This document shows, one piece after another, positions 3,254 to 61,513 of a stretch of 64,000 bases of DNA. Each line of letters starts with the position of its first letter. Within the stretch, counting starts at the first letter, position 1. The position numbers and the translations under genes are program-made. Under the pieces are notes generated by a model. It made no database searches. It was not told the DNA's origin and saw only the letters and a program-made list of their open reading frames with translations. The DNA comes from a virus (Duplodnaviria > Caudoviricetes), in the IMG/VR virus record IMGVR_UViG_3300030330_004154, positions 1 through 64,000 of that record. One strand, given 5' to 3'.

Positions 3254-3300
3254 ATATTGAACTAGCGGCGTTGCCGTATTTTATGTTGAAAGGAATATTG

Positions 3301-4851
3301 ATGACTTGGTTTCCACTGTGTAATTATACGCACTATTCACTGCTTCGTGGATTTTCTAAACCTAATGAGCTTGTAGCAGAATGTAAGAAGCGCGGGTATG
3401 TAGCCTGCGGAATTGCTGATTACAAGTCTATTTCTGGCGCTGTGTCTTTTTATTCAGCTTGTAAGAAAAATGACATCATGCCAATAATTGGCTGTAGTTT
3501 TGATGGCTTCAGCTTGTTTGCAAAAAATAAAGATGGCTGGTATGAGCTTATAGAGCTTGTGTCTTCAATTAAAGATGACGAGGTAGATCCTAAGCTGCTA
3601 TCTAAATCTGTTAAAAGCGAAAACTTGTTTAAAGTAAAGCCAAACAGAGAGTTTCCAGAATCTTACTACGTACAAAAAGAAGACGCAGAACTTCACAGAA
3701 TTCTTTTATGTTCTAACCTAAAGTGTACTATGGCGAAAGCCAAAGACAAAGTTAAAGATACACCTCTACAAAAGTTTTTTGATAAAGATAATTTTTATCT
3801 AAAAGATCTATCTGCAAAAACCAGTGTCTTTGACGATATACTAGAGGAGTGTGAAGAGTATAACATTCTTAACAATCCAATGCTACCTACATTCCCCTGT
3901 CCAAACGGACAATCTGAAGAAGATTACTTGCGTAAACTTGCAAGAAAAGGCTGGAGTGAAAAGTTAGGTAAAAACATTAAGAAAGGTAGTAAAGAGTGGG
4001 ATATCTATGGAGAGAGATTTAAGAAAGAGTTTGAAGTAATTAAAGAAGCAAACCTGTTTGGCTACTTCCTAATTGTTAGCGATATTATCAGGCATGTAGA
4101 GAGTAAGGGCTGGATGGCTGGTCCGGGTCGAGGCTCTGCCGCTGGCTGTTTGATTTCCTACTTAATTGGTATCACGCAAGTAGATCCTGTACAGTTTGAT
4201 TTAATTTTTGAAAGATTCTATAACTCTGGTAGAAATACTGATGGTAATGTTTCTCTTCCTGATATTGATATGGATGTTCCCGCTGGTAAACGAGATGATG
4301 TTATTGATTATCTTCGTGAAACCTACGGAGCAGAACGAGTTAGTCAGATGCTCACGTTTGGTAGACTACAAGGACGAAGCGCAATTAAAGAAGTCCTTCG
4401 TACCTACCAAGCCTGTGGCTTTTCGGAAATGAATGAAATTACAAAAGCAATTCCAGATGAAGCCGCTATCTCTGACCAACTATCACAAATGGATGATGAT
4501 GAGCGATCTATTATTAGATGGGCATTATTAAACAACCCAGAAGACTTGAGGGGTTATTGTTTTGTTAACGATGATGGCGAATTAGAAGGCGATTATGCTG
4601 ACATGTTTGACAAAGCGATTAAAATTGAGGGTACTTTTAAAACTCAAGGTAAACACGCTGCGGGTGTTGTTATCTCAGCAGAGCCACTACATAAGGTTTG
4701 TCCTATGGCTACGCAGAAAAACGCAGATGAAAAAATCGCTGGACTAGAAATGTCAGACTTAGAATCGCTTGGTCACGTCAAATTTGATGTGCTGGGGCTG
4801 TCTACTCTTGACAAGGTTATGAAAATAAAGGAAATACTAAATGAATCGTGA
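3301..4851 (+). CDS. dnaE: DNA polymerase III alpha subunit, N-terminal part (degenerate PHP + palm/thumb)
   Basis: THYSLL, GPGRGSAAGCLISYLIGIT, FERF, PDIDMD, GKHAAGVVI, KFDVLGL; all three catalytic Asp are here. ATG 3301 follows an AAGGA SD. Confidence 0.95.
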   Translation: MTWFPLCNYTHYSLLRGFSKPNELVAECKKRGYVACGIADYKSISGAVSFYSACKKNDIMPIIGCSFDGFSLFAKNKDGWYELIELVSSIKDDEVDPKLLSKSVKSENLFKVKPNREFPESYYVQKEDAELHRILLCSNLKCTMAKAKDKVKDTPLQKFFDKDNFYLKDLSAKTSVFDDILEECEEYNILNNPMLPTFPCPNGQSEEDYLRKLARKGWSEKLGKNIKKGSKEWDIYGERFKKEFEVIKEANLFGYFLIVSDIIRHVESKGWMAGPGRGSAAGCLISYLIGITQVDPVQFDLIFERFYNSGRNTDGNVSLPDIDMDVPAGKRDDVIDYLRETYGAERVSQMLTFGRLQGRSAIKEVLRTYQACGFSEMNEITKAIPDEAAISDQLSQMDDDERSIIRWALLNNPEDLRGYCFVNDDGELEGDYADMFDKAIKIEGTFKTQGKHAAGVVISAEPLHKVCPMATQKNADEKIAGLEMSDLESLGHVKFDVLGLSTLDKVMKIKEILNES

Positions 4852-5515
4852 TATTATTGTCTTTGACTTTGAGACAGGCGGTAGAAATCCACACACTTGC
4901 CAAGCTACTCAGTTGGCGGCATTGGCTCTAGATGGTAGAAACTTTAAGCTCAAAGGTACTTTTAACAGTGAGATATGGGCAGAAACAGACGACGACAAAG
5001 CAGAAAAGAAAGGGCTTGGAGTTATCGAAGATGGCGCTTTGAAAGTGACCGGAAAAACAAGAGAGCAAATATCTAAAGCGCCAAAACCAAAAGCTGTGTG
5101 GTCCAAGTTTTGCAACTTTGTAAATAAATATAACTGGAAAGGCACTCCATTTTTTGCTCCTGTCCCAGCGGGATATAACATAATTGGTTATGATATGATC
5201 TTGGTAAATAGATTTTGCAAGGAGTATGGACCTTGGGACGAATCTAGGCAGTGTCAAAAGCTGTTTAGTCAAGTGTACAAAGTTGACATGATGGACAACT
5301 ATTGGATGTGGACGGAGGGAGATCCAAGTATTAAAACTCGTAGCATGGACAGTATTCGTGAACGTATGGGTATGTCTTCAGAAAATGCTCACGATGCACT
5401 ACAGGATGTTAAAGATACCGCAAATTTGATGATTAAATTTATGAAGACCCACAGAGCGGTCTACAGAAACTTGAAACTTGAGAAGGCATTTGCAGATGGA
5501 AACACTTACGTTTGA
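4841..5515 (+). CDS. DEDDh 3'-5' exonuclease (DnaQ/epsilon-like)
   Basis: ExoI DFETGG, ExoII GYNIIGYD, ExoIII HDALQD. Overlaps both dnaE halves. Confidence 0.9.
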   Translation: MNRDIIVFDFETGGRNPHTCQATQLAALALDGRNFKLKGTFNSEIWAETDDDKAEKKGLGVIEDGALKVTGKTREQISKAPKPKAVWSKFCNFVNKYNWKGTPFFAPVPAGYNIIGYDMILVNRFCKEYGPWDESRQCQKLFSQVYKVDMMDNYWMWTEGDPSIKTRSMDSIRERMGMSSENAHDALQDVKDTANLMIKFMKTHRAVYRNLKLEKAFADGNTYV

Positions 5516-7055
5516 TTATAATGATGAAAAAGCTTGGGATTTATTTGAAGAAGGTAGAACGAAAGGAATCTTTCAGTTAGAGAGCAATCTTGGTCGCTCT
5601 TGGTCAAAAAAAGTTAAGCCTAAAAACTTGGAAGAGCTAGCTGCACTGATTAGTATTTTACGTCCGGGTTGTCTTAAAGCAATCACTGACGGCAAATCTA
5701 TGAGTCAGCACTACGTTGACAGAAAACATAAAGCGGAAGAGGTCACATACCTACACGATTCTCTTAAAGATATTCTTGAACCTACTTACGGGGTTTTGAT
5801 TTATCAAGAACAGTGTATGCGTATCGCCCAAAAGATTGCTGGATTCAATCTACAAGAAGCTGACGTGCTTCGTAAGGCGATTGGAAAGAAGAAAGCTGAT
5901 CTTATGGCTAAGGTTAGAAAAGACTTTATATCGGGCTGTAAAAGGCTTAAAACCGTGGATGAGGCAACTGCCGATGAGATCTTTGGTTGGATTGAAAAAT
6001 CTGCTAGATACTCTTTTAATAAAAGTCATGCAGTTGCTTACGCTATGAATTCATACTTGAGCGCTTGGTATAAAGCTAATCACACTAAACAGTTCTTTCT
6101 GTCCTACCTAATGTATGCAAATGAAAAGCAAGATCCCCATCAAGAAGTTTATGAGCTTGTATCAGAAGCAAAACTTTTTAATATTGAGGTAAAGATTCCA
6201 AAACTATCAGAGTGGTCAGAAGAATTTTTTATTACTAATAAAGGTATATACTTTGGTGTCAAAAATGTAAAGTCATTGACTGGAGTTAATGGCGATAAGG
6301 TCATCAATGCCATAAACGATACAAGCGAAGAGATAAATAAAAGACCAGCTAACTTTACTTGGATGGATATACTTATATATTTATCTACAAAAATTAACTC
6401 AACTGGCTTTAAGGCTCTATGCTCCATAGGTTTCTTTTCAACTAAGAAAACAGGCTTGAGTAGAAACAAAGCGCTGTACGAATACTTAATATTTAAAAAC
6501 CTAACAAAAGCTGAACTTAAATGGGTTACAGAAAATTATAAATCTAAGAAATGGAAGACCTTGACAGATTGCTTTGTTGATCTAGCGCCAACTAAAAAAC
6601 AAGGCGGCGGAACAAGCAAAGCGTCTCGCAGTCAAGACGTTACAAACGAAATCACTTTTTTGGAAAATCCACCATACGAACTTACAGATGACCCATCTTG
6701 GGTTGTAGAGCAAGAAATAAAGTTTTTGGGATGTCCAATTTCGATTTCTAGAATTGAATCGTCAGACACATCTTCTGCAAATACTAGCTGCAAAGAAATA
6801 CTAGACGGTAAAAAGGGTGAAACTCTCTGCGTAGCGGCTAGCGTAAACAGAGTGGCAGACCACAAATGTAAAAACGGCAAGATGATGAGCTTCTTAACCA
6901 TAGAAGACGAAACCTGTTCTCTAGATAGTGTGGTTGTATTTCCAGAAACTAGAGAGAAGTACCAATATATACTTTTTGAAAATAACAATTTACTGTTCTG
7001 CGGGAAGACTGATAAAAATAATTCATTTATTATCAATAAAATACATGAAATTTAG
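5496..7055 (+). CDS. dnaE: DNA polymerase III alpha subunit, C-terminal part (fingers, HhH, OB fold)
   Basis: G.TKGIFQLES, LRPG, TYGVLIYQEQCM, ADVLRKAIGKKK, YSFNKSHAVAY, and the OB-fold motif KNGKMMSFLTIEDET. Probable ATG at 5496. Confidence 0.95.
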   Translation: METLTFDYNDEKAWDLFEEGRTKGIFQLESNLGRSWSKKVKPKNLEELAALISILRPGCLKAITDGKSMSQHYVDRKHKAEEVTYLHDSLKDILEPTYGVLIYQEQCMRIAQKIAGFNLQEADVLRKAIGKKKADLMAKVRKDFISGCKRLKTVDEATADEIFGWIEKSARYSFNKSHAVAYAMNSYLSAWYKANHTKQFFLSYLMYANEKQDPHQEVYELVSEAKLFNIEVKIPKLSEWSEEFFITNKGIYFGVKNVKSLTGVNGDKVINAINDTSEEINKRPANFTWMDILIYLSTKINSTGFKALCSIGFFSTKKTGLSRNKALYEYLIFKNLTKAELKWVTENYKSKKWKTLTDCFVDLAPTKKQGGGTSKASRSQDVTNEITFLENPPYELTDDPSWVVEQEIKFLGCPISISRIESSDTSSANTSCKEILDGKKGETLCVAASVNRVADHKCKNGKMMSFLTIEDETCSLDSVVVFPETREKYQYILFENNNLLFCGKTDKNNSFIINKIHEI

Positions 7056-7426: not shown

Positions 7427-9115
7427 ATGAGAAAAAAAAGAATTCTATTTTGCAGTGAAGCTACCTTTCTAAACACAGGGTATGCCACATACACTAGAGA
7501 AATATTAAACTATCTACACTCTACAGGTAAATATGAACTAGCAGAAATGGCGGCTTATGGAGAAAGAGATGACCCAAGAGCGGCTAATATTCCTTGGAAA
7601 TACTATGGCGTAGTTCCAAATCAACAAAATGAACCAAAGGCTTCTCAGCAAGAGTTGGATGCTTACAATGCTACTGCTTCTGCTCAGTTTGGCGAATGGA
7701 TTTTTGAGCATATTTGTTTAGATTTTATGCCAGATATCGTATGTGACATTCGTGACTTTTGGATGTTAGATTTTGCTGAACGATCCCCGTTTAGACCTTA
7801 TTTTAAATGGGCTATCATGCCAACGGTTGACGCTAGACCTCAAGCAAGGCAGTGGGTAGCAACTTATGCAAGTGCAGATGCCTGTCTTACATATTCAGAT
7901 TGGGCAGGCGGTATCTTGCAAGATCAATCTGGCGGCAAGATTAAATATTTAGGTAGCGCACCGCCATCTGCTCACCCTGCATATAAGCCAGTTGAAGACA
8001 AAAGAAAGCATAAACAGCTTATGGGTCTTGATCCAGACTGTAAAATTATTGGTACAGTCATGAGAAATCAAAGACGTAAACTTTACCCAGATCTATTTGA
8101 AGCATTTAAAAAGTTCCTAGATAAATCTGAAGACAAAAACTGTTATTTATATTGCCATACATCTTATCCAGATCTAGGCTGGGACATGCCTGAACTTTTG
8201 AATGAACATGGGATTGGATCTAAAGTATTGTTTACTTATGTTTGCCCAGAAACTAGAAAGCCATTTACATCTGTATTTAAAGGGGCTATGGCGCAATCGC
8301 CTTACACTGGTAGGTTTGGAGCAACACTATCTAACGTAAAAAATGGACTAAGTTATGAAGAATTATCCAACGTGGTAAACTGTTTTGACCTATTTACTCA
8401 GTATGCAAATTCTGAAGGTTTTGGTTTGCCACAAGTAGAGGCTGCCGCCTGCGGAGTGCCTGTGTGCGGAACGGACTATTCGGCTATGGAAAGTGTGTTA
8501 AGGAAGCTAGAGGGTTATCCTATTAAGCCTAAAGCTTTATATAAGGAACTGGAGACCGGATGTTTACGTGCCGTACCAGACAACGATGCGGCGGCAAGTC
8601 TTTTCTTAGAATTCTTTTCAAAATCAGAAGAAGAAAGAATTTCTATTGGAAAAAATACTAGAGAAATGTTTGAGAAGTATTATCAGTGGCATTTAAGTGG
8701 CTCTCAGTGGGAAAAATACTTTGATAGTTTTGAGGCTTTGCCTTTTGAGCAAACGTGGGGTTCTCAACCTAGAATACAAGAACCAGCGCCAAAGATAGAC
8801 TTGTCACAAGCTGGTGCTGTTTCAAACACTCAATTAGCTAAACATTTAATATCAGATGTCTTGAGAGAGCCAGAAAAACTTAATACTTTTTTTGAAGCTA
8901 GACTAACAAGAGACTTGATGTATAAACAGGCGACATCTTCCACGGGTGGTATGTATTACAACGAATCTTCTGCTGCTTTCGATGGAATAAATCGTAGACA
9001 GCCGTTTGATTACAATATTGCTTATGATCAAATGGCAGGGCTGTGCAATAAAAGGAATCAGTGGGAGCAAAAAAGGGCTGAAGTAATGAAGCAAAGGCAA
9101 GAAGCTAGTGTTTAA
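7427..9115 (+). CDS. GT-B glycosyltransferase (GT4-like), 562 aa
   Basis: TGY in the N-terminal loop, IGTVMRNQRRK, EGFGLPQVEAAACGVPV. Confidence 0.9.
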   Translation: MRKKRILFCSEATFLNTGYATYTREILNYLHSTGKYELAEMAAYGERDDPRAANIPWKYYGVVPNQQNEPKASQQELDAYNATASAQFGEWIFEHICLDFMPDIVCDIRDFWMLDFAERSPFRPYFKWAIMPTVDARPQARQWVATYASADACLTYSDWAGGILQDQSGGKIKYLGSAPPSAHPAYKPVEDKRKHKQLMGLDPDCKIIGTVMRNQRRKLYPDLFEAFKKFLDKSEDKNCYLYCHTSYPDLGWDMPELLNEHGIGSKVLFTYVCPETRKPFTSVFKGAMAQSPYTGRFGATLSNVKNGLSYEELSNVVNCFDLFTQYANSEGFGLPQVEAAACGVPVCGTDYSAMESVLRKLEGYPIKPKALYKELETGCLRAVPDNDAAASLFLEFFSKSEEERISIGKNTREMFEKYYQWHLSGSQWEKYFDSFEALPFEQTWGSQPRIQEPAPKIDLSQAGAVSNTQLAKHLISDVLREPEKLNTFFEARLTRDLMYKQATSSTGGMYYNESSAAFDGINRRQPFDYNIAYDQMAGLCNKRNQWEQKRAEVMKQRQEASV

Positions 9116-54907: not shown

Positions 54908-57900
54908 TTATCCTAATACACTACGGTCTGACGTTGTTATACTACCATCACTGTTAAACTTCGATCTAGACATCATGTCTCCAGCTTCTGCCAAGATTTC
55001 GTCTTTAAACGCCTGTTGCATATTACCATTGAACATATGGTTAATATCAAGTGTACCAAGTTTTTCAAACATGTGTTTAATGTTTACATTGCCAAGCTTA
55101 TCTGTAACCTCTTGGAATTTATTGACCATCTCTTCAAATTTAGAGAAGTCTATGCCGCCCGGACCCTCTGGGCCAGTTGAACCGTTTGCTCTATATCTAA
55201 CAGATCCACCAGATGAAAGAGCCTGTGTTGGTGCTGAGTTAGAGTTCATAGATCTAAGTATTTGTAGGTTATTACCTCTTTGTACAGCAGCGCGATTTAC
55301 AACAAACTCTCCGGGTGTCAACATGGCAGGAACAGTATCAGTTCCTCTTGGAATAAACATTCCTCTGCTGGCATAAACAGGTCCACCTCGACTCAAACCT
55401 AATGCGGCTTGATTTTGATTTACCCTACTTTGAATTTCTCTAAACTTAGCATCTTGAGTATTTATGATAACCTGCTTGGCTGTAACATCCATGCTTTCCA
55501 TGTTAGCCGCTTGATCACCAAGTTGACTCTGCAATTGTGAAAGTTCACGACCCTCTGCTTTTATTCTTTCTTCTTCAGTTGTTGTTCCTGTAAATACTTC
55601 TGCCGCTCTACCTCCAAGCCCAAATGAACCAAATGCCAGTTGAGCAGCACGTTTATTTTCAGCGTCACTTAAACCAGTCCCCTGTAACCCCTGTAGACCT
55701 TTACCAAGCGCACCAGCACCGAACAAGCTAGCCGCAGCAGCATCGCCAGTTCTAAGTGCAGATCCAGCAGCAGCACCAATAGCTTGATTGAAGAACGATT
55801 CTACATCACCGCCAAGAAGCGAATCTAAAGCGCTTTTCTCTGCTTGATTCTTTTTCCTTATTAATTCTAATTCTTGTTTTCTTTGTTCTATACCTTGTTT
55901 AGTAATTGTTATAAGGGCTTGGTTTGCAGCTTTAAGTTCAGATCTTCTGTCTGCGTCTACGCCAGCCCTGTCACCAAAAGCACCGCTTTTTCCGCCACTA
56001 TTTAAAATAGCTGCATTTTGTGCGCTTTGTTGTCTGGAAAATCTATTCAATACATCTTCGCTAGCCCTGCGAATATCGCTTGCGCTGCCAGTTGTCAGTC
56101 CAGCAACTCCAGCATCTCGTAGTGACAAGTTAGCTTGCTGTCTTCTTGCTGCAAATTCTCTTTCAGGTGTAAATTTATCACCACCGAAGAACTCTAAATT
56201 CTTAGCAGCCTCAATTTGATTGTCAATTGCTTTCTTTTGTGCGTCAATTAATTTTAATTCTGCTTTTCTTCTTTCTTCAGTAGCTTTAATTAATTTAGCG
56301 TTTACAGACTCCATTTCCTTCATAGGCCCAAGGATCTGCTTTTGAATTTGTTCTCCAAGTGGACCAAATGCTTTTTGCAATATTGGACTAGCATCACCAG
56401 TATTATAGAACTGTTCTATTTCCTCTTTTGTTAGATCACCAATACCATTAAATGCATTTGTTAACCTATCTTTAATAGGGCTACTATCTGGAATTGTTCC
56501 AAGTAAGGCGGCTTTAAAGTCTTTCTGAACTTTACCCAAGCTTGCGCCTGAAGTAATATCTCCTGCGCTTAAATTGCTTCTCAGAGTTTCAAGCGCTGCA
56601 TTTGCATTAACCTGAGCGTCGTTAAACCCTTGCAAGGTTCCAGTTAATACATCCACCTGCTCGGTTGTTGCACCAAACGCAGAAAAGCTACTAGCAACAG
56701 CGTTAAGTGAAGAATCTAAATCTGACTGGCTGATAGCAGCACCAGCACCACTAACAACAGCAGCTAATGTGTTTGTAGCTATAGTTAATGAATTATAACC
56801 AGTTTTAGATGATTCAGTTATATTGTCTAGGTTAGTATTAAATGCAGTTATACCAGAGGTTACGTCTTTTAATCCAAAGTTTAATGATTTCAAGAAAGCA
56901 GCATTTTCTTTTGCTGCCTCGCCCATTGCTTTTACTTGATCTTCAAATTGCTTTTTTAAGTTTGAATCTAAATCTAAAGCCTTTCTAACTAAAGCTCCCT
57001 CTTCGCCCATTTGACTTATTATAGAGTCCAAGGTGGGTGCTGTACGGCCCAAAGACGCAGCAGTTCCAGCCGCATTTTTAACAAGTTCGTCAAAACCCTT
57101 TTTAAATTCAGGTGCTTGTAACTGAGCAACTAATTGTTTGTTAAGCGCTTCTTCTTGTTTTTTCCTTTCTAGTCTGGCGTTTGTTAGTGCGGTCTTTGTT
57201 CTTGTGGCGGCATCGTCCCACAGTCCAATGTAAGCGCCAATATTATCGCCAAGTTTTTCAGGATCAAACATGCCAACGTCGGCGCCAGATGCTTTTGCAA
57301 GAGAAGCAACTTGGCCGCCAACACCAAAGGCAGCAGCGTTCATCACTCCTATTCCAATCACCTCTGCAAGCAAGCCTCCTCTTCCTGCCTTGGCGGTGGT
57401 TTGACCTCTTACCCTATCACCAGATGCTAGTTGAATAGCATTGTCTTTGGCTACGGCTCTCAAACCTCCAGTAAATGATCCTGACTGAAAAGCTTCTTGT
57501 ATTGTTTTCGCTCCGTCTTTAACTTCTTTCAGCGCTTCAGAAGCAGCCTTGCTTGCTGCTGCTAGCTCGTTCGTTCGTCTTGCAGCGGATGCTTCAGCTT
57601 CTGCCTTAGCTTTAATTACATCCGTTGAATCTGCGCCAAAAAGCGTAAGGACGTTATCTCTGAAAAACGCTAAAGCGTCTTCAGTTAATCCAAGTTTTGC
57701 AGCAACCCCAACCGCAGCACCACCAAGACCACCAACTATAGCTCCAGCGGCAGTACCCAATCCGGGAAGAAGCACTGTTCCAATCGCAGCGCCAGCGGCA
57801 GCAGCACCCATTGCTAATTTGTTTGCATCGCTTGCGGCTTGACTTGCAGCAGCAGTGGCTCCAGCATTAGCAACGTCACCTTCTTCAATTGCTTTCGTTG

Positions 57901-60900
57901 CTTTTTCATGAACCCCCGTGTACGCATCCATAGCCTTTGTTATGGCGAAAACCGCTCCAACCGCAGCGCCAACACCTATAGTAAGTGCGTTCATTGGTAA
58001 GCCAAGACTACTAACTAAAAATCCAAAGGTGGATAGCATCATAACTGTATTACCAAGCTCATTCTGCACAGCGCCCATTCCTTCAGTAGCGCCTTCGACC
58101 CGTGGTATAAATGCTGCCATACTGGTGGCTGCCATCATAATTCCCATTGCGCCCATGCCGCCCATGCCACCACCGGCAACCGCTGCGCCCCGTTGATCCC
58201 TTTGGGCCTTACGTTCGGCGGCTTTAGCTGCTTTTTCATCTGCTATAGCAGCTTTTCTTGCAGCTTTTTCTAAAGATTGAATAGAAACGCCACCCTTTTT
58301 CATACCTGCGGCAAGAGCCTTGGTTGCGCTATCGCCCTTGTTGATAGAGCCAATAAACGCAGACATAGCTGCTTTTGTTTTTCTGGCAGACGCCCCCTGC
58401 TGCTGCAACATGCGTTGTAAATCTTTACTAGCAAAAGCAGTACCCTGCGCTGGATTAGCAATAGGACCACGAACAGCATTAGCACTTGCACTTAACTTGC
58501 CAGCAGTTTTTTGTGTTTGAGTTGCGGCTCTATCTAGAGGTCCAATGATTTTTTTTACAGAACCGGCAATACCTGTAGAAACTTTACCAAAAGCTTCTTG
58601 AATTTTAGGAGCTTGTCCCTTTAAACTAGTAGCACCTCGCTGAATACTTTGTTTATATTGATCAAGGCCAGACTTTAGATTTGACGCACCTTGTTGTGCA
58701 ACCTGTTTTACTCGGTTGAACCCATCCTTTAATTTATTTTCACCTTGCCTTACCTTGTCTCCAACTTTAGCAAATTGATTTCTTAGATTTTGAGATGTAG
58801 TTTTAAATCCTTCGCTTTGCTTAAAATTAGTAACAGCTTGTTGAGCGCTCTGTCCAACACTTTTGAATTTACTGGGAACATCTTTAATTGCACTAGAAAC
58901 ACTTTTTAAGCCTCTAGCTAATAAACCTGCTTCTTTCTTTACTTCACCTCCCCCAGAGGACTGATTAGAGGCACGTCTTTGCGCTGCCGCAGCTACGTTT
59001 ATACCACTGTTAGTTATATTACCAAAGTTAACACCGCCACCATTAGCAAATTCAACAGGTCCACCTTTTGCATAACCTTTAACGCCCTGTTTGTTCATGC
59101 GGTTAAGGTTAGAGTAGCCAATACTCTTAGCAGCAGATTTATTAAAGACAAACTCACCGGGGGTTAGAAGCGCAGGAACTGTATCTGACCCAGAAATACC
59201 ACCACCAGAAGCTAATTTTCTTCTGCCTGTCGCTCTAATTTTAGCTCCAGAAATGAAACCAGCAGCAATATCGTTTGCCAATTTTCTCTGTATGTTTCCT
59301 TTAACTTCTCCAAAGCTTCTTTTTGCTTCTGCTTTTTTAAGATTGCCAATTAAACCGGGACTACCAAAAAGAGTTCCTAGCTTCTTTTTATTTTGAGATA
59401 TAGCAGAGCGAGGAAAGTCAAAATTAGCACGACCGCCAGCAGCAACAGCGCCAGTTAAGGCAGAAATCATACCTTCAAATATATATCCCTCAACGGTAGA
59501 TGAAACCGCTTTGTCTTTCTTGATATTGCCAATAACTTTTCTTAATGCATTTTCATTAGTGTCAATGGCTGGTGGTAAGTCTAATAATTTAGAGCCTTTT
59601 ACCGTAGAAATAGTGCTTTCAATTGCTTTCGTAATTCCAGCATCAAACCCTTTACTAACAGCGCCTGCGTATTGCTTGTTCTTTCTCATGCCCGCTTCAC
59701 CCTCGGCAGCACCGGGGTAGAAAACTGGATAAGTTGCTGGAGCTTTCAGTACAGCCCTGACTCCACCTCTAATATCTTTATCTGATAATCCAGCTTGTCT
59801 TGCCGCCAATCTAGCAAGTCTATTTCCCGGAGGTAAAACAAATGGCTGGTCTTTAGTTTGCGTATATGTACTGTCAGTACCTTTAGGTGGATTTAAAACA
59901 AAAGCGCCAACTTGACCCGGAACTACATCAAATGCAACTTGACCTGCTCCTGCACCCCCGTCCTTTCTAGATTTTAATTGCTTGGTGGAGCCAGTTATTT
60001 TTGCGCCGTTTTTAAATCTATTTTCATTCATCTGCGCAAGAGTTCCAGCACCCAAACTCTTTACGCTGCTCTTCTTTATTACAAATTCACCGGGAGTAAG
60101 CATAGCTGGAACTGTATCGCGATTACCGGTCCCCGGAACCACACCGCCTCTTGCAAACCCAGTAGGGCTTGCTCCACCTCTAAGACCAGAACCAATTCCT
60201 CTGGCAAAACCAGCAGCACCTCTAGCAAACTTAATTGCTGCAAACGTAGTCAGAAGTGGCAGTAGAGGTTTTATGGCATCTGCTATTTTAATAAGCGCAC
60301 TAGCAAGCTCAAGAGAGGTTTTCACCATTAATTGAAAACTGCCAGTTTGACTAATACTTCTAATGAGAGCTAAAAACTCTTCTTTAACTTTTGCTATTTG
60401 AACAGCAAGTGCTTGTTGAGCTTTCGCAGCATCTTTAGTTAAACTATCTCCACCTTCCAGTGCGGCCTGTCTAGCTCTTTCAGCAGTTTCAAACTGCTGC
60501 AAAAGAGGAATAACTTTACCAATCTGTCTAAATCCACCAAGCTCTTCTGCTATTCTAACAAATCTAATGTCGCCCTGCTCCAGTCCAGAAAGAGCTTGAC
60601 TTAATTGCCTAATAGCTTCAAACGGACCAATAAATTTACCATTAAGATCAGTAAGTTCAACGCCAAACTGTTTAAGGAATTCTATAGTTTTAGGTCTTTG
60701 AATACGTGTAAAGATAGTACGCAAACCAGTTGCAATACTTTCTGCACTTTCACGGGTAGTAGCACGAACACTTGTGAACAGCGCTATCAGTTCATTCAAA
60801 TCGCCACCAGCAGCTTTAAACACACCACCAGTACGACGAATAACACTAATCAAGTCACCAGATTCAACAGCAAACTGACCAGCAACCCTGTTGATAGCAC

Positions 60901-61513
60901 CAAGCTGTCTTTCTAGCTCACCCACGCCCTTGCCAAACTGAGCAAGAATAGCAACAGCGCCCTCGGCAGTTTTTGTTATATCATCAAAGGTTGGAGCTAA
61001 TTCTGTTTTAGCCAGAGTTCTAAGTGCGACTTTTAAATCGCTTGCTTGTATACCAGCTTGAGATAAGATCCTACCGACAGATAAGATAGACTTACTAGAA
61101 ACACCTAAAGATGTAGCTAGTTCTGTAATTGTATTTTCAAGACCTTTCAACTGGGCCATAGTTTTCCCAGTCACCTGAGAGATCTTGATCATCTCTCTTT
61201 CAAAAGCAATCGCTTCTTTGGTTGCATTAGCCAACCCGCTTGTAAAAAGACTAACTGCCCTAGTAGCAATAGTAAACGCACCAAACCTACGTATAGACGC
61301 ACCAAAAGCCTTGCCCATTTTATTGGCTTGCGTTGTTGCTTGCTTGGTGGCTTTATTTAAGTTATTAACCTGCCGGGAAGCCTGTTGACCCCCTTTTAGA
61401 TTAATTTGTGCATTAACGCCCCTTAACTGCCGTTGTATTTGGTTTACAACCTGACGAGTATTAGTGGGCGCTTGTAATTGTACTTGCGCGGTTAAAACGA
61501 ATCGTGAAGCCAT
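54908..61513 (-). CDS. Tail tape measure protein (2201 aa)
   Basis: A/G/K-rich helical protein; TP901-type core (EMIKISQVTG..L..SLGVS..LSQAG..TRESAESIATGLRTIFTRI); glycine-rich hydrophobic segments; three DTVPA(M/L)LTPGEFV motifs. Confidence 0.92.
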   Translation of the reverse strand: MASRFVLTAQVQLQAPTNTRQVVNQIQRQLRGVNAQINLKGGQQASRQVNNLNKATKQATTQANKMGKAFGASIRRFGAFTIATRAVSLFTSGLANATKEAIAFEREMIKISQVTGKTMAQLKGLENTITELATSLGVSSKSILSVGRILSQAGIQASDLKVALRTLAKTELAPTFDDITKTAEGAVAILAQFGKGVGELERQLGAINRVAGQFAVESGDLISVIRRTGGVFKAAGGDLNELIALFTSVRATTRESAESIATGLRTIFTRIQRPKTIEFLKQFGVELTDLNGKFIGPFEAIRQLSQALSGLEQGDIRFVRIAEELGGFRQIGKVIPLLQQFETAERARQAALEGGDSLTKDAAKAQQALAVQIAKVKEEFLALIRSISQTGSFQLMVKTSLELASALIKIADAIKPLLPLLTTFAAIKFARGAAGFARGIGSGLRGGASPTGFARGGVVPGTGNRDTVPAMLTPGEFVIKKSSVKSLGAGTLAQMNENRFKNGAKITGSTKQLKSRKDGGAGAGQVAFDVVPGQVGAFVLNPPKGTDSTYTQTKDQPFVLPPGNRLARLAARQAGLSDKDIRGGVRAVLKAPATYPVFYPGAAEGEAGMRKNKQYAGAVSKGFDAGITKAIESTISTVKGSKLLDLPPAIDTNENALRKVIGNIKKDKAVSSTVEGYIFEGMISALTGAVAAGGRANFDFPRSAISQNKKKLGTLFGSPGLIGNLKKAEAKRSFGEVKGNIQRKLANDIAAGFISGAKIRATGRRKLASGGGISGSDTVPALLTPGEFVFNKSAAKSIGYSNLNRMNKQGVKGYAKGGPVEFANGGGVNFGNITNSGINVAAAAQRRASNQSSGGGEVKKEAGLLARGLKSVSSAIKDVPSKFKSVGQSAQQAVTNFKQSEGFKTTSQNLRNQFAKVGDKVRQGENKLKDGFNRVKQVAQQGASNLKSGLDQYKQSIQRGATSLKGQAPKIQEAFGKVSTGIAGSVKKIIGPLDRAATQTQKTAGKLSASANAVRGPIANPAQGTAFASKDLQRMLQQQGASARKTKAAMSAFIGSINKGDSATKALAAGMKKGGVSIQSLEKAARKAAIADEKAAKAAERKAQRDQRGAAVAGGGMGGMGAMGIMMAATSMAAFIPRVEGATEGMGAVQNELGNTVMMLSTFGFLVSSLGLPMNALTIGVGAAVGAVFAITKAMDAYTGVHEKATKAIEEGDVANAGATAAASQAASDANKLAMGAAAAGAAIGTVLLPGLGTAAGAIVGGLGGAAVGVAAKLGLTEDALAFFRDNVLTLFGADSTDVIKAKAEAEASAARRTNELAAASKAASEALKEVKDGAKTIQEAFQSGSFTGGLRAVAKDNAIQLASGDRVRGQTTAKAGRGGLLAEVIGIGVMNAAAFGVGGQVASLAKASGADVGMFDPEKLGDNIGAYIGLWDDAATRTKTALTNARLERKKQEEALNKQLVAQLQAPEFKKGFDELVKNAAGTAASLGRTAPTLDSIISQMGEEGALVRKALDLDSNLKKQFEDQVKAMGEAAKENAAFLKSLNFGLKDVTSGITAFNTNLDNITESSKTGYNSLTIATNTLAAVVSGAGAAISQSDLDSSLNAVASSFSAFGATTEQVDVLTGTLQGFNDAQVNANAALETLRSNLSAGDITSGASLGKVQKDFKAALLGTIPDSSPIKDRLTNAFNGIGDLTKEEIEQFYNTGDASPILQKAFGPLGEQIQKQILGPMKEMESVNAKLIKATEERRKAELKLIDAQKKAIDNQIEAAKNLEFFGGDKFTPEREFAARRQQANLSLRDAGVAGLTTGSASDIRRASEDVLNRFSRQQSAQNAAILNSGGKSGAFGDRAGVDADRRSELKAANQALITITKQGIEQRKQELELIRKKNQAEKSALDSLLGGDVESFFNQAIGAAAGSALRTGDAAAASLFGAGALGKGLQGLQGTGLSDAENKRAAQLAFGSFGLGGRAAEVFTGTTTEEERIKAEGRELSQLQSQLGDQAANMESMDVTAKQVIINTQDAKFREIQSRVNQNQAALGLSRGGPVYASRGMFIPRGTDTVPAMLTPGEFVVNRAAVQRGNNLQILRSMNSNSAPTQALSSGGSVRYRANGSTGPEGPGGIDFSKFEEMVNKFQEVTDKLGNVNIKHMFEKLGTLDINHMFNGNMQQAFKDEILAEAGDMMSRSKFNSDGSITTSDRSVLG

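Follow-up and report, generated by a model that had tools for sequence, protein, structure and literature searches.

An exchangeable, motif-fenced slot in the tape measure protein of an uncultured marine phage, and the possible phosphodiesterase domain that it carries

We analyzed a 64,000-nucleotide stretch of viral DNA (hereafter the window; positions 1 to 64,000 of IMG/VR record IMGVR_UViG_3300030330_004154), in which a minus-strand gene encodes a 2201-residue tape measure protein, P0001. We describe residues ~501–760 of P0001, with high confidence, as an exchangeable slot, bracketed by two copies of a motif that is also found in the lambda tape measure protein gpH. The domain that fills the slot in P0001 has, in our estimation, an even chance of being an orphan phosphodiesterase, possibly derived from restriction endonucleases, that occupies a recombining cargo slot and is delivered at infection. 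The gene and its parts are as follows:

54908..61513, minus strand: tape measure protein gene (2201 aa; PF10145, TIGR01760, and tape-measure PHROGs)
60014..60169, minus strand: motif block 1, upstream fence of the slot (residues 449–500, FARGG...DTVPAMLTPGEFV...L..MN), from the motif copy and the identity profile
59234..59947, minus strand: folded cargo domain ("X-type"; residues 523–760), from the AlphaFold2 model; 76 clusters
59054..59233, minus strand: motif block 2, downstream fence of the slot (residues 761–820), from the motif copy and the identity profile
55229..55396, minus strand: motif block 3, near the C-terminus (residues 2040–2095), from the motif copy; its position is equivalent to that of the lambda gpH copy

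P0001 is the product of a 6606-nt open reading frame (ORF) and matches PF10145 at residues 127–313 (93.1 bits, Pfam cut-off 33.2) and TIGR01760 at residues 90–392 (98.4 bits, NCBIfam cut-off 28.8); it is therefore a TP901-type tape measure protein, and several tape-measure PHROGs match it as well. Both scores lie above the curated cut-offs, the protein is very long, and its neighbors include giant tail-type ORFs, with ORFs of 1748, 2361, 656, 369, 1801, and 1503 residues located downstream of the gene. The source record is a 97.5-kb contig with an estimated completeness of 59% and represents a large uncultured marine siphophage of roughly the 150-kb class. Tape measure proteins set tail length, form a trans-envelope channel, and sometimes carry a cell-wall hydrolase.

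The evidence for an exchangeable slot comes from the relatives of P0001. A metagenome-derived protein collection holds 2700 homologs of the N-terminal 500 residues at E ≤ 1e-10, some of the closest being labeled Tara Oceans. The best 120 of these 2700 are 67–100% identical, with the three-motif plan kept in those checked, and 74 of the best 120 have no match to the hidden Markov model (HMM) of the cargo domain. These 74, counted among the ~110 proteins whose N-terminal 500 residues are 67–92% identical, nevertheless retain the three-motif plan. A sequence-only reading of this region had proposed that the flanking repeats might allow cassettes to be swapped, and had suggested looking for different content at this position in related tape measure proteins; such content is indeed found. 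Compared with P0001, proteins P0094–P0113 are 84–93% identical over residues 1–440 and 60–92% identical over the fencing blocks, but only 17–39% identical in the slot. P0004 and P0005 have N-terminal parts that are only 65–67% identical to that of P0001 and slots that are 55–58% identical. Over all pairs of proteins, 261 combine N-termini at least 85% identical with slots less than 25% identical, versus 25 pairs in which this relationship is reversed.

When identity to P0001 is followed in 20-residue windows, relatives with 84–93% identical N-termini remain at 60–95% up to residue ~500 and then fall to 0–55%, with the exception of one slot window of P0099 that reaches 75%. Identity returns to 70–90% at residues 761–820 and drops again after ~821. 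This fall and return at both motif blocks supports the cassette idea well, and the sharp mosaic boundaries (~500 and ~761) fit recombination at the DNA encoding the fences.

Slots vary from 147 to 774 residues in length and divide into at least 26 sequence classes. In profile comparisons the slot class of P0001 joins ten others at >90% probability despite ~20% identity, and these classes therefore represent one very divergent domain type. The shorter slot units are related among themselves but not detectably to the P0001 domain. A D-x(6-12)-ExK spacing is present in P0110, P0113, and P0130 and in the first units of P0114 and P0184, and classes 1 and 10 each consist of one short unit and one long unit. 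For the minimal-type slots of P0110, P0113, P0182, and P0191 we found no Pfam family, no PDB match, and no shorter standalone relatives.

The fences share the motif DTVPA[ML]LTPGEFV, which begins at residues 466, 777, and 2059 of P0001. A profile including the second copy matches residues 721–785 of PDB 8IYK chain H with a modest score (E 0.0032, 20.2 bits), over a block of the form GG...PA...GEFV...IG..NL...GGxV, which places the motif in the lambda gpH type. The chain is annotated "Tape measure protein," and its 853 residues equal the length of lambda gpH given in PMC12617516. According to the same source, gpH is cut into gpH* and gpHC in a glycine-rich region near residue 690–710, residues ~690–817 have no resolved structure, and residues 818–849 bind gpI at the tail tip. 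The gpH-like motif thus adjoins the gpH cleavage region, and we hypothesize that the fences may be processing motifs, as the sequence-only reading had called them. Lambda gpH shares the fencing motif, and copy 3 of P0001 has the same near-C-terminal position; gpH differs in that the motif occurs only once, in lacking an embedded globular domain, and in that no enzymatic activity is known for it, whereas P0001 has three copies, two of which bracket the cargo slot. The slot system accordingly offers a testable handle on a question in lambda, namely the role of the gpH motif beside the gpH-to-gpH* cut. Within the P0001 gene the three copies are only 72–77% identical in DNA over 47 nt, which rules out a recent DNA duplication of the motif and, because the divergence is this large, indicates that it is kept by selection at the protein level.

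The stretch between motif copies 1 and 2 (59216–60001, minus strand; residues 505–766) had been described as less coiled-coil-like, and modeling bears this out. AlphaFold2, given a 47-row alignment, predicts a single mixed alpha/beta globular domain (mean pLDDT 90, pTM 0.85), which rules out a uniform helical ruler for these residues. Numbering elements within the 262-residue segment (protein residue = number + 504), the model comprises, in order, four short strands (22–56), two short helices, a hairpin (81–94), a 35-residue helix (102–136), helices 150–162 and 164–183, a loop, three short helices (198–219), strand 223–229, helix 236–246, and strand 253–255. When residues 78–262 of the segment are modeled alone, the helices are kept and the strands are lost; the N-terminal strands are thus part of one sheet with the others, which gives a unit of ~240 residues.

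A HMMER search of 1.84 billion cluster representatives recovered the segment in 76 clusters (defined at 50% identity). With few exceptions the matches lie at residues ~500–900 of long (1000–3200 aa) tape-measure-like proteins, the shorter matches that were aligned continue into motif 2, as contig-end fragments would, and no standalone relative of the cargo domain was found among these representatives. With a confident predicted fold and no relative in PDB or Pfam, the domain is well suited to structure determination and to the search for new nucleases.

Conservation was counted on an HMM alignment of 91 domains (cluster representatives with mutual identity ≤50%). Gly676, which begins the G-Y-x-F-E helix in the model, is present in 91/91, and the other invariant positions are:

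59474..59476, minus strand: Glu680, in the G-Y-x-F-E helix (164–183); 91/91
59417..59419, minus strand: Asp699 of FDFP, in a loop where residue 700 forms a single beta-bridge; 91/91
59321..59329, minus strand: Glu729-Ala-Lys731, the (D/E)xK triplet, on strand 223–229, which is followed by a helix and a strand; position 729 is Asp in 60 and Glu in 31, and Lys731 is present in 91/91
59282..59284, minus strand: Lys744, in helix 236–246, which follows the (D/E)xK strand; 90/90

The strings GYIFEGMI (59465–59488), NFDFP (59411–59425), and AEAKRS (59315–59332), from which a nuclease had originally been proposed, are all present, and the 9-nt ranges assigned to them at that time fall inside these coordinates. 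The E...D...(D/E)xK residues within them proved to be real conserved positions across the 91 clusters. A loose form of the pattern occurs in 149 of 177 slots, compared with a mean of 7.8 when the slots are shuffled and with 10 of 172 equal-length stretches taken after motif 2. A glycine-rich loop, TGAxxAGG, lies between the Glu helix and Asp699. The alignment contains no invariant His or Cys, which argues against HNH nucleases and against zinc or cysteine peptidases.

Fold and residues together bear on two explanations in which the domain has no catalytic role. The domain could be a structural piece (a plug, a spacer, or a chaperone-docking or channel-forming element) whose charged residues form salt bridges or a metal site. 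Such a role, which we consider quite unlikely, would agree with the confinement of the domain to one position inside tape measure proteins, with no standalone relatives found, and with the fact that the surrounding motifs belong, in lambda, to the region of tail-tip anchoring and cleavage (PMC12617516). It is difficult to reconcile with the wide range of slot lengths given above, and modules that are ~20% identical or differently built within 90% identical backbones would be unexpected if they had conserved partners. Moreover, invariance limited to E, D, D/E, K, and K plus glycines amid general divergence is the pattern of an active site.

The slot could also be a hypervariable surface shaped by host-defense pressure on the tape measure protein, so that its variability would matter more than its content. 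Divergence in the slot is extreme and sharply bounded, and the 300 residues after motif 2 are equally variable, even in P0003. Two reports on defense also mention the tape measure protein: one reportedly describes bacterial receptors that recognize core proteins of phages, and the other a membrane-bound nuclease that cleaves phage DNA while it is being injected. We regard this explanation as very unlikely, as it leaves the confident fold and the invariant catalytic-type residues across 91 clusters unexplained; moreover, it does not conflict with an enzyme engaged in an arms race.

The region after motif 2 is an observation in its own right. P0001 residues ~821–1130 (58000–59050, minus strand), the ~300 residues that follow the motif, are hypervariable too and look like a low-complexity helical ruler of varying length. 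P0003 is only 26% identical to P0001 after motif 2, although its N-terminal part is 98% and its slot 94% identical.

Our preferred reading of the invariant set, from sequence and model, is a metal-dependent phosphodiesterase site of PD-(D/E)xK type that has been heavily elaborated or perhaps permuted. The PD-(D/E)xK core has an alpha-beta-beta-beta-alpha-beta topology with the Asp at the second strand and the (D/E)xK on the third. The cargo domain contains the Asp, the (Asp/Glu)-x-Lys, and an upstream Glu in a helix, and the succession of Glu helix, Asp, (D/E)xK strand, helix, and strand follows the order of this core. It shares with PD-(D/E)xK phosphodiesterases a G-x-x-F-E helix, an h-D-h element, and an h-(D/E)-h-K strand with a helix and then a strand after it, and the G-x-x-F-E motif appears to resemble that of Hjc, YraN/UPF0102, and Mrr_cat, which are among the small members. 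It differs in the absence of the beta1-beta2 hairpin, in a 29-residue helical insert, in requiring an N-terminal beta subdomain to complete the sheet, in being embedded in a virion protein, and in having no profile match or significant fold match to these enzymes. The nuclease proposal of the sequence-only reading is only partly supported: the invariant residue set agrees with it, but the AlphaFold2 and Foldseek check that it had called for gave no significant match to a nuclease fold.

Several results weigh against the phosphodiesterase assignment. Searches of Pfam, PHROGs, and NCBIfam with the segment, with full-length P0001, and with ten members of the family (at E ≤ 10 for the Pfam search of the ten) returned tape-measure models only; PDB searches with the single sequence and with a profile returned only lambda gpH, through the motif, and nothing for the domain; and the ESM atlas gave no usable match for the cargo segment or for one minimal-type slot. 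In the model, Asp699 occupies a loop and does not begin a canonical second strand, the Glu helix is not followed by a beta1-beta2 hairpin, and 29 residues in three short helices come between Asp699 and the (D/E)xK. The cargo domain has a pI of ~10, but the whole of P0001 has a pI of 9.85, and basic charge was therefore dropped as a sign of DNA binding. Finally, an active nuclease beside the end of the phage's own DNA would have to be held inactive.

Foldseek searches of the domain model against PDB and BFVD gave E values of at least 0.9 throughout. The restriction enzymes PspGI and Bse634I appear as weak structural rows in the top 50, with scores far under the level of a shared fold; our impression is that two such enzymes exceed what chance would give. 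The core-only model matches helical bundles only. Comparison of every slot class with E. coli YraN, Mrr, McrC, and HsdR by hhalign gave probabilities of ≤1%, but this test is without power, because the control pair of true members, YraN and Mrr, also scored 0.5%.

The lack of matches to known folds in these structure searches would suit an enzyme with a new fold and a target other than nucleic acid, namely a cell-envelope, nucleotide, or small-molecule substrate, for example, with a Glu/Asp acid/base pair, and lysines that bind the substrate. Documented enzymatic domains of tape measure proteins are peptidoglycan hydrolases (PMC12617516), a Pfam search of the whole of P0001 recognized no muralytic domain elsewhere in the protein, and the TGAxxAGG loop between the Glu helix and the Asp could fit such an enzyme. 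We consider this alternative unlikely. Lysozyme-like and peptidase folds are abundant in PDB, yet the Pfam searches gave no lysozyme-like, M23, or NlpC/P60 family and no such fold is among the structural matches listed; in addition, an acidic-x-Lys strand with an upstream Glu helix is the pattern of phosphodiesterases, which other, shorter slot modules also show (P0110, P0113, and P0191, for example).

Returning to the phosphodiesterase assignment, we give the domain about an even chance of being a nuclease-like enzyme, and we infer that the tail probably carries a fast-changing enzyme into the host. The slot, fenced by two copies of an old gpH-type motif, would hold a 240-residue domain that cuts or binds nucleic acid in a metal-dependent manner, whether through restriction-endonuclease ancestry or convergent design. 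The domain would travel in the tail lumen, probably not fully folded, exit with the tape measure protein at infection, and be freed by cutting at the gpH-like motifs, after which it could act on host nucleic acid or on a defense component. Co-infecting relatives would recombine at the conserved DNA that encodes the fences, and the cassettes would thereby be shuffled.

A wider claim, which we put forward tentatively and with more doubt than belief, is that the tape measure protein of large marine siphophages is a delivery vehicle into whose motif-fenced slot recombination drops fast-evolving effector enzymes: the orphan nuclease-like fold, the shorter restriction-nuclease-like units, and possibly thermonuclease-, ADP-ribosyltransferase-, and HAD-like units. 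If this is correct, phages would have their own equivalent of polymorphic toxin systems, in which enzymes that are already made enter the host before the DNA does and there disarm defenses or break down host nucleic acid. Tape measure proteins would thereby gain a new role, with long-tailed phages delivering effectors that act on nucleic acid in the form of protein, and the slot would exemplify modular evolution inside an essential structural gene. Phage "polyvalent proteins" (those of Iyer et al., 2017) and polymorphic toxins are reportedly built in a similar way, with a conserved delivery scaffold and quickly exchanged enzymatic modules that are often nucleases; P0001 differs from them in that its scaffold is a tail tape measure protein and its module is internal and fenced on both sides, and no immunity gene was noticed, although no search aimed at one was made.

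A full-text literature search on nucleases and other enzymatic domains embedded in tape measure proteins found nothing describing such a slot. Among the closest known cases are tape measure proteins with embedded peptidoglycan hydrolases, namely T5 pb2, that of mycobacteriophage TM4, and others (as cited in PMC12617516). These likewise carry an enzyme-like globular domain inside the ruler that is presumed to act after ejection, whereas P0001 has no muralytic match, has phosphodiesterase-type residues, and has a motif-fenced exchangeable slot.

Other slots contain additional kinds of units. In the P0114-type and P0184-type proteins (23) the slot units occur in tandem, a short restriction-nuclease-like unit preceding an X-type unit; unit types therefore combine and do not only replace each other. 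The slot of a related phage at L016:4519-5985 (plus strand) has, after its X-type unit, a sub-threshold match to the PF03496 ADP-ribosyltransferase exoenzyme family at slot residues 350–489 (E 0.0067; 16.2 bits, cut-off 23.4). Slots of 156 aa with the sequence DGDTF...FRPxGYDAYE...GGFGRYLIDHG appear thermonuclease-like by eye (L004:4474-4941, L035:4474-4941, L042:301-777, and L044:301-735), as does the start of the P0150 slot; Pfam and PDB sequence and profile searches did not confirm this reading for L004, L035, L042–44, or P0150. P0017–P0019 and P0150 have an extra module of ~200 residues between the X-type unit and motif 2, which starts with FDFDDTLATT; it contains a HAD-like DxDxT by eye, and the modules of P0017–19 gave zero Pfam matches.

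As for the remainder of the gene and the genome, no prophage relatives of the N-terminal part of P0001 were found in the 185,579 species genomes searched, and a tblastn search of a phage genome collection gave zero matches. A NUMOD1 (PF07453) match at 60590–60661 (minus strand; residues 285–308) scores 25.2 bits, barely over the cut-off of 22.8; it falls inside the PF10145 region, recurs more weakly in relatives, and probably reflects a part of the tape measure core that resembles a helix-turn-helix. Elsewhere in the window, positions 7427–27915 (plus strand) form a long sugar-biosynthesis block with glycosyltransferases, NDP-sugar epimerases/dehydratases, a DegT-type aminotransferase, and a carbamoyltransferase. 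A DnaE-type polymerase III alpha is encoded as two plus-strand ORFs, one with the PHP and NTPase domains (3271–4851) and one with the finger domain (5478–7055), and a 224-aa ORF (4841–5515) sits between the two halves.
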